The notes beneath the pieces were generated by a model that was given only the letters and a program-made list of their open reading frames with translations, did no database searches and was not told where the DNA came from. A program made the translations under genes and the position numbers. Below are positions 876 to 1,140 of a stretch of 64,000 bases of DNA, piece after piece; the stretch's first letter is position 1; the number at the start of each line of letters is the position of its first letter. The stretch is taken from positions 1,120,001-1,184,000 of the forward strand of contig CAVSUE010000001.1 of NCBI GenBank assembly GCA_963731265.1, in the 5' to 3' direction. The stretch comes from an uncultured Verrucomicrobiae bacterium (lineage in GTDB: Bacteria > Chlamydiota > Chlamydiia > Chlamydiales > Rhabdochlamydiaceae).

Positions 876-904
876 TTGACTTAAGGGTAAGTTATTGTTA
901 TAAT
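876..904 (+). promoter_or_regulatory. Sigma70/sigma66-type promoter of the aro operon leader
   Basis: TTGACT (876-881), 17-bp spacer, TATAAT (899-904), with extended -10 TG. Confidence 0.75.
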
Positions 905-913
905 GGAGCCATT

Positions 914-1015
914 ATGAAAACACAAGACAGAACCACACCTGCGCTTGAAATTGGCCGAGGGGCACCTCTCTTGGTCAATCGTTATTTCTTTTCTTACTTC
1001 TATTTTGGCGCATAG
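914..1015 (+). CDS. Putative Phe/Tyr-sensing attenuator leader peptide (33 aa)
   Basis: MKTQDRTTPALEIGRGAPLLVNRYFFSYFYFGA*; 4 Phe + 3 Tyr in 8 codons (983-1006), directly upstream of a Phe/Tyr biosynthesis operon. Confidence 0.8.
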   Translation: MKTQDRTTPALEIGRGAPLLVNRYFFSYFYFGA

Positions 1016-1140
1016 CCGCCAATATACCTTTTTATCCTCTTACATTCGCTCGTTACCTTGGAAACCCTGAAAAAGGGTCCGGACCTCTTTTTTGAAGAGG
1101 AAAAACGAATTAAATATAAACTTTTGGATATAAGGTATTT
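1001..1140 (+). promoter_or_regulatory. Attenuator region with alternative RNA structures
   Basis: TTGGCG/CGCCAA hairpin over the leader stop; 1024-1037 complementary to the SD region 1126-1138; 1029-1041 alternatively pairs with 1095-1105; GGTCCGGACC palindrome followed by a T-run. Confidence 0.6.

Follow-up and report, generated by a model that had tools for sequence, protein, structure and literature searches.

Examination of a 64,000-nucleotide (nt) stretch of the genome of an uncultured member of the Rhabdochlamydiaceae (contig CAVSUE010000001.1, positions 1,120,001 to 1,184,000; the window, in which all coordinates below are given) revealed a short unannotated open reading frame (ORF) that ends in a run of phenylalanine and tyrosine (F/Y) codons and stands upstream of a large operon for the shikimate pathway and the synthesis of Phe and Tyr. 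This ORF and the RNA elements that follow it very probably constitute a genuine, conserved Phe/Tyr leader-peptide attenuator. That its output in the window is translational control, exerted through a sequestered ribosome-binding site, is about an even prospect. A first-pass annotation of the sequence had proposed a leader of this kind, coupled to a ribosome-driven switch, at positions 876 to 1140, and on rechecking we found all of the features it had described there to be correctly placed.

The leader ORF (914 to 1015; like all features of the element, on the plus strand) begins with an ATG at 914, ends with a TAG at 1013 to 1015, and encodes in 33 codons the peptide MKTQDRTTPALEIGRGAPLLVNRYFFSYFYFGA, whose C terminus reads YFFSYFYFGA. 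Its regulatory codon run (983 to 1006; TAT TTC TTT TCT TAC TTC TAT TTT, i.e., Y F F S Y F Y F) places four Phe and three Tyr codons among the last ten sense codons before the Gly, after which the ORF closes with Gly-Ala-stop. The stop codon lies in the loop of a six-pair hairpin, P2 (1005 to 1022; TTGGCG/CGCCAA), which can be extended to 1001 to 1026. Past P2 come a segment that pairs in folding predictions with the ribosome-binding region of the DAHP synthase gene (the anti-Shine-Dalgarno [anti-SD] segment, 1023 to 1038) and a conserved C-rich box (1036 to 1047; CCTCTTACATTC in the window). The ribosome-binding region and start codon of the DAHP synthase gene occupy 1125 to 1143, with AAGG at 1132 to 1135 and the ATG at 1141. 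This gene heads an operon (1141 to 9328, plus strand) in which ORF and Pfam analyses identified DAHP synthase, chorismate mutase, prephenate dehydratase, prephenate dehydrogenase, an aminotransferase, aroB, aroA, aroK, and aroC. Most of these genes overlap by a few bases, with a 148-nt gap ahead of aroA, and this spacing suggests that all nine are cotranscribed.

A search of 61 related genomes recovered an orthologous DAHP synthase, with 76 to 100% identity, in 13 genomes of the same genus (one of them the source of the window), and in all 13 an F/Y ORF stands upstream of it, with runs such as YFYSFYFYFGA. A fourteenth orthologous locus, from another family, likewise has the F/Y ORF; it was not found in the 420 nt examined upstream of the orthologous loci L015 (61% identity) and L017 (67%). 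Altogether, the combination of leader, P2, and box was recovered at 38 distinct loci from four families of Chlamydiota and two genomes of Acidobacteriota. We aligned the 38 distinct sequences, curated 28 loci, and folded 27 loci with masking (see below), and the pairing analysis was run on the set from which L075, L097, L102, L109, L124, and L126 to L129 had been set aside; in L126 and L128, the F/Y strand was seen by eye to be complementary to the ribosome-binding site. The F/Y run is in frame with the start codon in each of the 28 curated loci despite their differing N-terminal halves. The conservation of the run among relatives, which the first-pass annotation had named as a check, thus came out clearly in favor of its central claim, that a Phe-plus-Tyr leader ORF with a hairpin over its stop codon precedes the shikimate/Phe/Tyr operon.

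The composition of the run was assessed against the genome at large and across the family. Of the 4.69 million six-frame ten-codon windows in the 2.34-Mb genome, 55 contain at least seven F/Y codons; hence, such a run on its own is rare rather than unique and is suggestive only, and it is its conservation in relatives that lifts it beyond chance. A second F/Y run in the genome, with an SFYFYF motif (contig C1, position 1806857), was considered and set aside, as it has neither the leader architecture nor an aromatic amino acid gene downstream. In the curated loci, the last ten codons before the Gly include two to five Phe and zero to five Tyr codons, with a sum of at least five in all 28. Near invariance across families, even at synonymous positions, is seen in the alignment for the final three codons (nine bases) of the run, for the GGCGC after them, and for the 5' arm of P2. 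The codon content points to dual sensing, such that the element would report the supply of charged tRNA-Phe and tRNA-Tyr. The only leader devoid of Tyr codons is one that precedes a gene for a TyrP-like permease: L072 (genome G370) has a Phe-only leader (FMFFFFGA...) with the same hairpin and box upstream of a TyrP/Mtr-type aromatic amino acid permease.

Wherever the downstream gene could be identified, the element precedes genes related to Phe and Tyr, namely, DAHP synthase with or without an N-terminal extension, chorismate mutase, chorismate mutase-prephenate dehydratase, a class IV aminotransferase, and the TyrP-like permease. The first gene lies 65 to 190 nt from the leader stop codon in 27 of the 28 curated loci. 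L070 (genome G090) preserves the whole of the leader, hairpin, and box, but DAHP synthase is missing and a different long ORF comes next, starting 410 nt downstream; this looks like a rearranged or orphaned copy.

Pattern searches delimited the distribution of the element more widely. A degenerate core pattern, with up to two mismatches allowed, matched in 53 of 401 genomes of the phylum. Of these, 21 were verified in context and belong to four families; among the rest, one was fetched and proved false, and 31, judged by the matched string alone, are unable to form the hairpin. An exact 18-base pattern gave 50 matches in 596 Gb of species genomes, where about 17 are expected by chance; 21 have the leader context and 29 do not. 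A stricter pattern retrieved six metagenome contigs, all six of them genuine. The genuine public records are labeled Rhabdochlamydia, Simkaniaceae, Parachlamydiales, Chlamydiia, or "Candidatus Acheromyda," and some have been filed as Verrucomicrobia. The two loci from the Acidobacteriota (L075 and L109; "Candidatus Marinacidobacterales") lie in GC-rich genomes, before a chorismate mutase-prephenate dehydratase gene, and share with the chlamydial form 24 identical bases across the core, hairpin, and box, which suggests horizontal transfer of the regulatory module between phyla. A sample of 301 acidobacteriotal genomes gave no genuine case beyond the already known genome: 14 other matched strings lie inside long ORFs or are without an F/Y run, and one further match came without a locus.

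The 5' end of the element also shows recurrent features. A sigma-70-type promoter (876 to 904) precedes the leader in the window, with TTGACT at 876 to 881, a 17-nt spacer, TATAAT at 899 to 904, and a TG before the -10 box, and it matches the consensus at 11 of 12 positions. As a 2-kb scan gave three promoter-like sites of that quality with 1.4 expected, the promoter by itself is weak evidence. Across the family, a TTGAC-type -35 and a TATAAT-like -10 box stand at the equivalent place in all 28 curated loci, scoring 9 to 12 out of 12 (27 found by an automatic search and that of L070 by hand). The leader ATG at 914 lies 9 nt past the -10 box, and the earlier suggestion that the leader is effectively leaderless is therefore plausible. 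The start codon is similarly within 10 nt of the -10 box in six of the 28 curated loci, and in all six it is an ATG, which fits leaderless translation. Three leaders start with GTG, each with GGAAGG a few bases upstream. Most members of the genus have a 5' untranslated region (UTR) of about 30 nt, which is absent in the window and in L003.

The leader ORF itself is in frame and 26 to 43 codons long in 27 of the 28 curated loci, and the 28th, L013, has 92 codons. In L013 (genome G018), the N-terminal part of the leader is separated from its F/Y run by about 200 nt of inserted sequence that resembles a miniature inverted-repeat transposable element, with long terminal inverted repeats; the insertion leaves the frame open and so gives rise to the 92-codon leader. 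Eight loci of the same genus (L004 to L010 and L014) have a purine-rich element in the 5' UTR that is predicted to pair with conserved Cys-Arg-Ser codons preceding the F/Y run, both of which are absent in the window and L003; a downstream purine-rich element (AAAGAGCGG type) can also pair with these codons. Within the leader ORF of the window, a 13-pair hairpin, P1 (950 to 979), is a possible pause or timing hairpin. We did not retain it as a conserved element, as the alignment of 11 relatives lends it weak support (five consensus pairs, -0.72 kcal/mol, and two pairs with double changes).

P2 folds in 33 of 33 distinct sequences, with predicted energies of -7.6 to -12.1 kcal/mol, and shows compensatory double changes in L007 and L011. 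The leader stop codon lies in its loop in 21 of the 28 curated loci, and in the other seven the ORF runs 5 to 11 codons further. The C-rich box follows the leader stop at a distance of about 15 to 25 nt and, in the 38-sequence alignment, is of the CCCTTACATCC type in the genus and of the CTATCAGATCC or CCCATCCCAGATCC type in other families. A motif search placed the box in 17 of the 28 loci, the window not among them, and in these 17 we found no consistent pairing partner for it, the available duplexes being weak (-2.1 to -8.4 kcal/mol).

Farther downstream, two inner hairpins are predicted in the window. Hairpin A (1058 to 1082) has an A-rich loop, and a hairpin of this type was seen by eye at the equivalent place across the genus. 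Hairpin B (1084 to 1100; CCTCTTT/GAAGAGG) appears, again by eye, to be kept in L003 through changes in both arms. A palindrome, GGTCCGGACC (1076 to 1085), is followed by a T-run (1088 to 1093). We also considered a likeness to the lambda nut site, since the core of hairpin A (1065 to 1077) has the same 13 bases as the boxB hairpin of the phage lambda nutR region, with boxA-like strings 10 to 25 nt upstream. As L003 does not keep the boxA-like string and the hairpin sequence differs in other relatives, we took this likeness to be a coincidence, and the match to lambda boxB is probably nothing more.

On this basis we infer translation of the leader, stalling within it, the direction of control, and an effect reaching over the operon, and we propose the following course of events. 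The strong promoter would yield an mRNA that starts almost at the ATG of the 33-codon leader. When Phe or Tyr is short, the ribosome on the leader would stall on the run with its seven F/Y codons, just ahead of P2; when both are plentiful, it would reach the stop codon in the P2 loop and depart. Occupancy of the stretch comprising the run and the stop codon would then set the fold of the downstream leader RNA and, through it, the frequency of initiation on the DAHP synthase gene. Overlap between the genes would couple their translation and, probably together with Rho polarity, carry this decision to the whole operon. At about a third of the related loci, the F/Y codons would themselves be the covering strand, such that a stalled ribosome would uncover the site directly, and in the window the covering strand would have moved to just past P2.

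The folding models show the ribosome-binding site of the DAHP synthase gene in the window to be sequestered by 1023 to 1038. The first-pass annotation had noted that 1024 to 1037 is complementary to 1126 to 1138, and this segment does cover the ribosome-binding region: the duplex of 1023 to 1038 with 1125 to 1139 has a predicted energy of -13.1 kcal/mol, equaled by one of 300 shuffles of the target. The helix is present in the minimum-free-energy folds, where it closes a domain holding the two inner hairpins, and the mean unpaired probability of the ribosome-binding region in the free RNA is 0.12 to 0.23. Thus, in the folding predictions, the window displays in its ground state the paired ribosome-binding site that characterizes translational attenuators. 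A cover right after P2 is also found in L003 and L014, and one formed by the post-P2 segment or box is found in L004, L006, L013, and L054.

A related set of loci has a different cover. In 11 loci, the strand that carries the F/Y codons pairs with the start region of the downstream gene from -23 to +3 (-10.3 to -19.7 kcal/mol), and many columns of the duplex contain two or three pair types. These energies were reached by 0 to 18 of 200 shuffles, except at L036, where 37 of 200 did so. In the short loci, this gives one long helix, with the F/Y codons on the ribosome-binding region of the gene and P2 at the tip. We modeled a stalled ribosome by masking a 28-nt footprint on the F/Y run, using nearest-neighbor equilibrium folding, which takes in neither pseudoknots nor kinetics. 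Across the 27 loci so treated, the site is, before masking, paired in 19 (unpaired probability of 0.27 or less) and open in 8. Masking releases it in nine, in which the unpaired probability rises from at most 0.14 to between 0.40 and 0.67, and partly in L069. As the starved ribosome would sit on the covering strand itself, this released group offers a simple mechanism with the right logic.

Several observations weigh against control of translation in this manner in the window and in part of the family. Nine of the 27 loci, namely, the window, L003, L004, L006, L009, L012, L013, L014, and L066, stay paired under masking, with the probability unchanged at 0.27 or less. In the window, the unpaired probability is 0.11 to 0.23 with the F/Y codons masked and 0.16 to 0.36 with the stop codon masked, so that the ribosome-driven switch claimed by the first-pass annotation was not reproduced there in equilibrium folding. 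A further eight of the 27 are open in every state (0.36 or more); thus, unlike the leader, P2, and box, sequestration is not universal. The conserved box, moreover, has no role in a purely translational model. Alternative folds of the kind expected of ribosome-mediated attenuators are accordingly predicted in nine of the 27 relatives and not in the window at equilibrium, where what we found instead were competing pairings for a purine-rich segment at 1093 to 1109.

This segment has three alternative partners, namely, 978 to 994, 1034 to 1045, and hairpin B. Its duplex with 978 to 994, at the start of the F/Y run, has a predicted energy of -14.4 kcal/mol, which 4 of 300 shuffles of the local target reach; yet 23 of 200 shuffles of the whole 125-nt downstream region also reach it, so that it is significant against the local control only, a further point against the proposed switch. 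The pairing dominates the folds of transcripts that end at 1112 to 1125, before the ribosome-binding site is made. The second pairing had been noted by the first-pass annotation, and it does exist, though in a slightly shifted register (1034 to 1045 with 1092 to 1102; -10.4 kcal/mol, reached by 18 of 300 shuffles). These pairings suggested a one-step relay, in which a stalled ribosome frees 1093 to 1109 to cover the anti-SD segment. As drawn, with the run free, the purine segment would be taken, the cover free, and the site closed; with the run occupied, the purine segment would lie on the cover and the site would be open. We rejected this relay for the window, as in equilibrium folding masking of the run sends the purine segment into hairpin B and leaves the site closed, with an unpaired probability of 0.21 to 0.22; a value of 0.36 was reached only with a ribosome placed at the stop codon. 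The closed state with both long-range helices would be a pseudoknot, which is beyond scoring by the programs used.

The most serious rival to translational control is Rho-dependent attenuation, which we regard as a real possibility, if on the doubtful side. Here, the F/Y codons, P2, and the box would form a Rho loading site that is laid bare after termination at the leader stop codon, and Rho would end transcription ahead of the DAHP synthase gene or within its first part. A stalled ribosome would mask half of the site and melt P2, giving read-through, and the sequestered ribosome-binding site would serve mainly to keep the region free of ribosomes. The universally conserved parts, i.e., the leader, P2, and the box, are exactly those on which such a mechanism would depend, whereas sequestration varies. 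C exceeds G in the 60 nt past the leader stop in 27 of 27 loci, and in the 78-nt stretch comprising the F/Y run, P2, and the box, C exceeds G by at least 10 in 25 of 28; the value for the window, +14, falls in the top 2.3% of the windows of the genome, which itself encodes Rho. Nearly all of the G residues of this stretch are in P2. The layout of a C-rich strand, a hairpin, and another C-rich strand right past a stop codon resembles the annotated rutA-nutR-rutB arrangement of phage lambda and also the boxA/rut region that follows tnaC. The mechanism would, in addition, work in every variant without an RNA relay, which the window lacks. Set against this, the F/Y codons are by necessity free of G, so that part of the skew comes at no cost. 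Rho sites are not sequence specific, which leaves the conserved box motif unexplained, and the helix in which the F/Y strand covaries with the ribosome-binding site (9 to 11 loci) would be superfluous. Rho control may also act together with a translational layer.

A more speculative proposal, rather unlikely in our estimation, joins these elements. In this view, a self-contained sensor made up of the F/Y codons, P2, and the box, present in at least two phyla, would act as a split Rho loading site masked by the starved ribosome. Individual lineages would add covers for the ribosome-binding site, including the sensor codons themselves, and the box would be a recognition element for a specific factor. 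Such a split site, to which we give the same tentative standing, would amount to a tna-like architecture with the opposite logic, put to use for biosynthetic genes.

A classical intrinsic terminator of the trpL/pheL type, formed either by P2 and the T-run at 1029 to 1033 or by the GGTCCGGACC palindrome and the T-run at 1088 to 1093, is improbable. A terminator scan did list P2 as terminator-like, T-runs occur 6 to 10 nt past P2 in a number of loci, and in L004, L006, and L013 a hairpin with a T-run was seen by eye just ahead of the ribosome-binding site. However, the T-run does not adjoin the P2 stem, and the shortest loci (L063, L064, L065, and L037), with 65 to 76 nt from stop codon to gene and P2 as the sole hairpin, have neither a T-run nor room for a terminator. 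The T-run after the palindrome falls within the arm and loop of hairpin B and hence is part of a stem rather than a terminator tail, and it is broken in L003. The first-pass annotation's suggestion that the palindrome and T-run might act in termination accordingly found no support: the scan did not flag the palindrome, and the T-run is interrupted in a relative whose DAHP synthase is 97% identical. The folds with and without masking offer no antiterminator alternative either. With no conserved terminator across the loci, and with neither the terminator nor the antiterminator of a classical attenuator in evidence, we rejected intrinsic termination as the general mechanism.

The near invariance of the C-terminal residues and a stop codon directly after them in 21 of 28 loci could suggest a nascent-peptide sensor, with free Phe or Tyr triggering an arrest at the stop codon through the conserved terminal F-Y-F-G-A, much as Trp does through TnaC. 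This is very improbable. Seven of the 28 loci have an ORF that extends 5 to 11 codons further, and the Gly-Ala follows from the sequence of the 5' arm of P2; since the opposite strand of that hairpin covaries, the constraint is on the RNA. It would also make no regulatory sense for a biosynthetic operon to be induced by its own end product. We hold it to be just as remote that the P2 palindrome and two similar motifs, one in the N-terminal coding part of the leader and the other the box, are DNA or RNA targets of a regulatory protein, with no role for the ORF. In favor of this, P2 forms a 7-4-7 inverted repeat conserved in sequence and not in pairing alone, and many loci show by eye a box-like motif inside the leader ORF, about 25 nt from its start. 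Against it, the double changes in L007 and L011 are symmetric, as expected of a hairpin more than of a protein site; all 28 curated loci retain the ORF in frame, together with its F/Y content; and no candidate regulator gene travels with the element.

The preferred reading, a ribosome-mediated Phe/Tyr attenuator, may be placed among known systems. The window has the short ORF with a run of end-product codons before a biosynthetic operon that is typical of such attenuators, its translation being predicted. In translational attenuation of the ermC/cat type, stalling within a short leader ORF changes the RNA fold such that a sequestered ribosome-binding site opens; those stalls are drug induced and peptide dependent, whereas the stall in the window would come from starved codons. 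The tnaC-tnaA region and the rutA-boxB-rutB region of lambda tR1 share with the element C-rich RNA directly past the stop codon of a short ORF, with a hairpin between C-rich strands, where a parked ribosome could mask Rho loading. The tna operon, however, is induced by its amino acid through peptide arrest at the stop codon, and the stall in the window would be at starved codons before the stop. An Rfam scan of positions 700 to 1300, with E values up to 10, gave three unrelated matches at chance level (E = 3.9 to 9.6), far below the gathering scores, and no Phe, Trp, His, Leu, or Thr leader or T-box family.

For the sequestration by sensor codons, a parallel is the LEU element before leuA in Actinobacteria, whose leucine codon run is predicted to pair with the leuA ribosome-binding site (Seliverstov et al. 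2005; PMC1262725). As in 9 to 11 of the loci related to the window, a regulatory codon run there covers a downstream ribosome-binding site. The LEU element differs in its amino acid and its pseudoknot core, and it is itself a computational prediction; in the window, moreover, the cover is not the codon run. The Enterobacterial pheL-pheA and pheM-pheST leaders have, in the accounts given in PMC11802643 and PMC3082878, only Phe codons and act on transcription through a terminator and antiterminator.

The closest counterpart is aroR, which precedes aroF in Corynebacterium glutamicum and, as summarized in part of PMC11802643, is a Phe-Tyr-Phe leader and transcription attenuator responding to Phe limitation, with stalling raising expression (Neshat et al. 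2014); in the same summary, Tyr availability has no effect. Both are short mixed Phe/Tyr leaders before a DAHP synthase operon. Compared by description only, and as far as that summary goes, aroR works by transcription attenuation, whereas the family described here has no conserved intrinsic terminator, and the window has a longer run (seven of ten codons), a near-leaderless start, an invariant stop-codon hairpin, and the box and belongs to another phylum. The first-pass annotation had been aware of no mixed Phe/Tyr leader in Chlamydiae. We likewise found no description of a Phe/Tyr leader in Chlamydiae in the literature searched, which took in few subscription journals and not the original aroR paper, and the papers on Chlamydia trachomatis that surfaced concern, in the text retrieved, trpRBA; in view of aroR, the idea of a mixed leader is new for Chlamydiae and not new as such. 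The kind of attenuator is thus known, and what is new is the long mixed F/Y run, the near-leaderless leader, the invariant stop-codon hairpin, the box, and the lack of a terminator, together with sensor codons that double as the ribosome-binding-site cover in part of the family, a new phylum, and an apparent transfer to a second one.

The surrounding genes place the element in the wider organization of aromatic amino acid synthesis in this genome. A gene for a fused dehydroquinase/shikimate dehydrogenase is divergent from the operon. On the minus strand, at 31766 to 39297, lies a complete trp operon with a Trp repressor gene at its head (trpR, 38986 to 39297), followed by trpE, trpG, trpD, trpC, trpF, trpB, and trpA, and at its end is a second DAHP synthase (31766 to 32782), 48% identical to the first, with a ferredoxin-like N-terminal domain (PF18152). 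The Trp branch would thus have its own DAHP synthase under a protein repressor, and the Phe/Tyr branch would have one under the leader. This split of two DAHP synthases between TrpR and a leader resembles the three-isozyme division of labor in Escherichia coli. At 9386 to 14610 on the minus strand, four tandem ORFs encode proteins of 358 to 378 amino acids; the two that were compared are 74% identical and have a Fic-like motif near the C terminus, and the Pfam match to Fic is subthreshold (E = 8.8 × 10−4).

The family is compact and highly conserved, and the element is a candidate compact Phe/Tyr biosensor. Its natural variants, with and without a 5' UTR, with the codon run or a separate segment as the cover, and with five kinds of regulated genes, make it a good system for studying how leader switches are rewired. 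Very little is known of cis-regulatory RNA in chlamydia-like bacteria, for which amino acid economy is central to dependence on the host. If the proposed attenuator is real, it would mean that many chlamydia-like bacteria still sense the supply of Phe and Tyr directly through translation.

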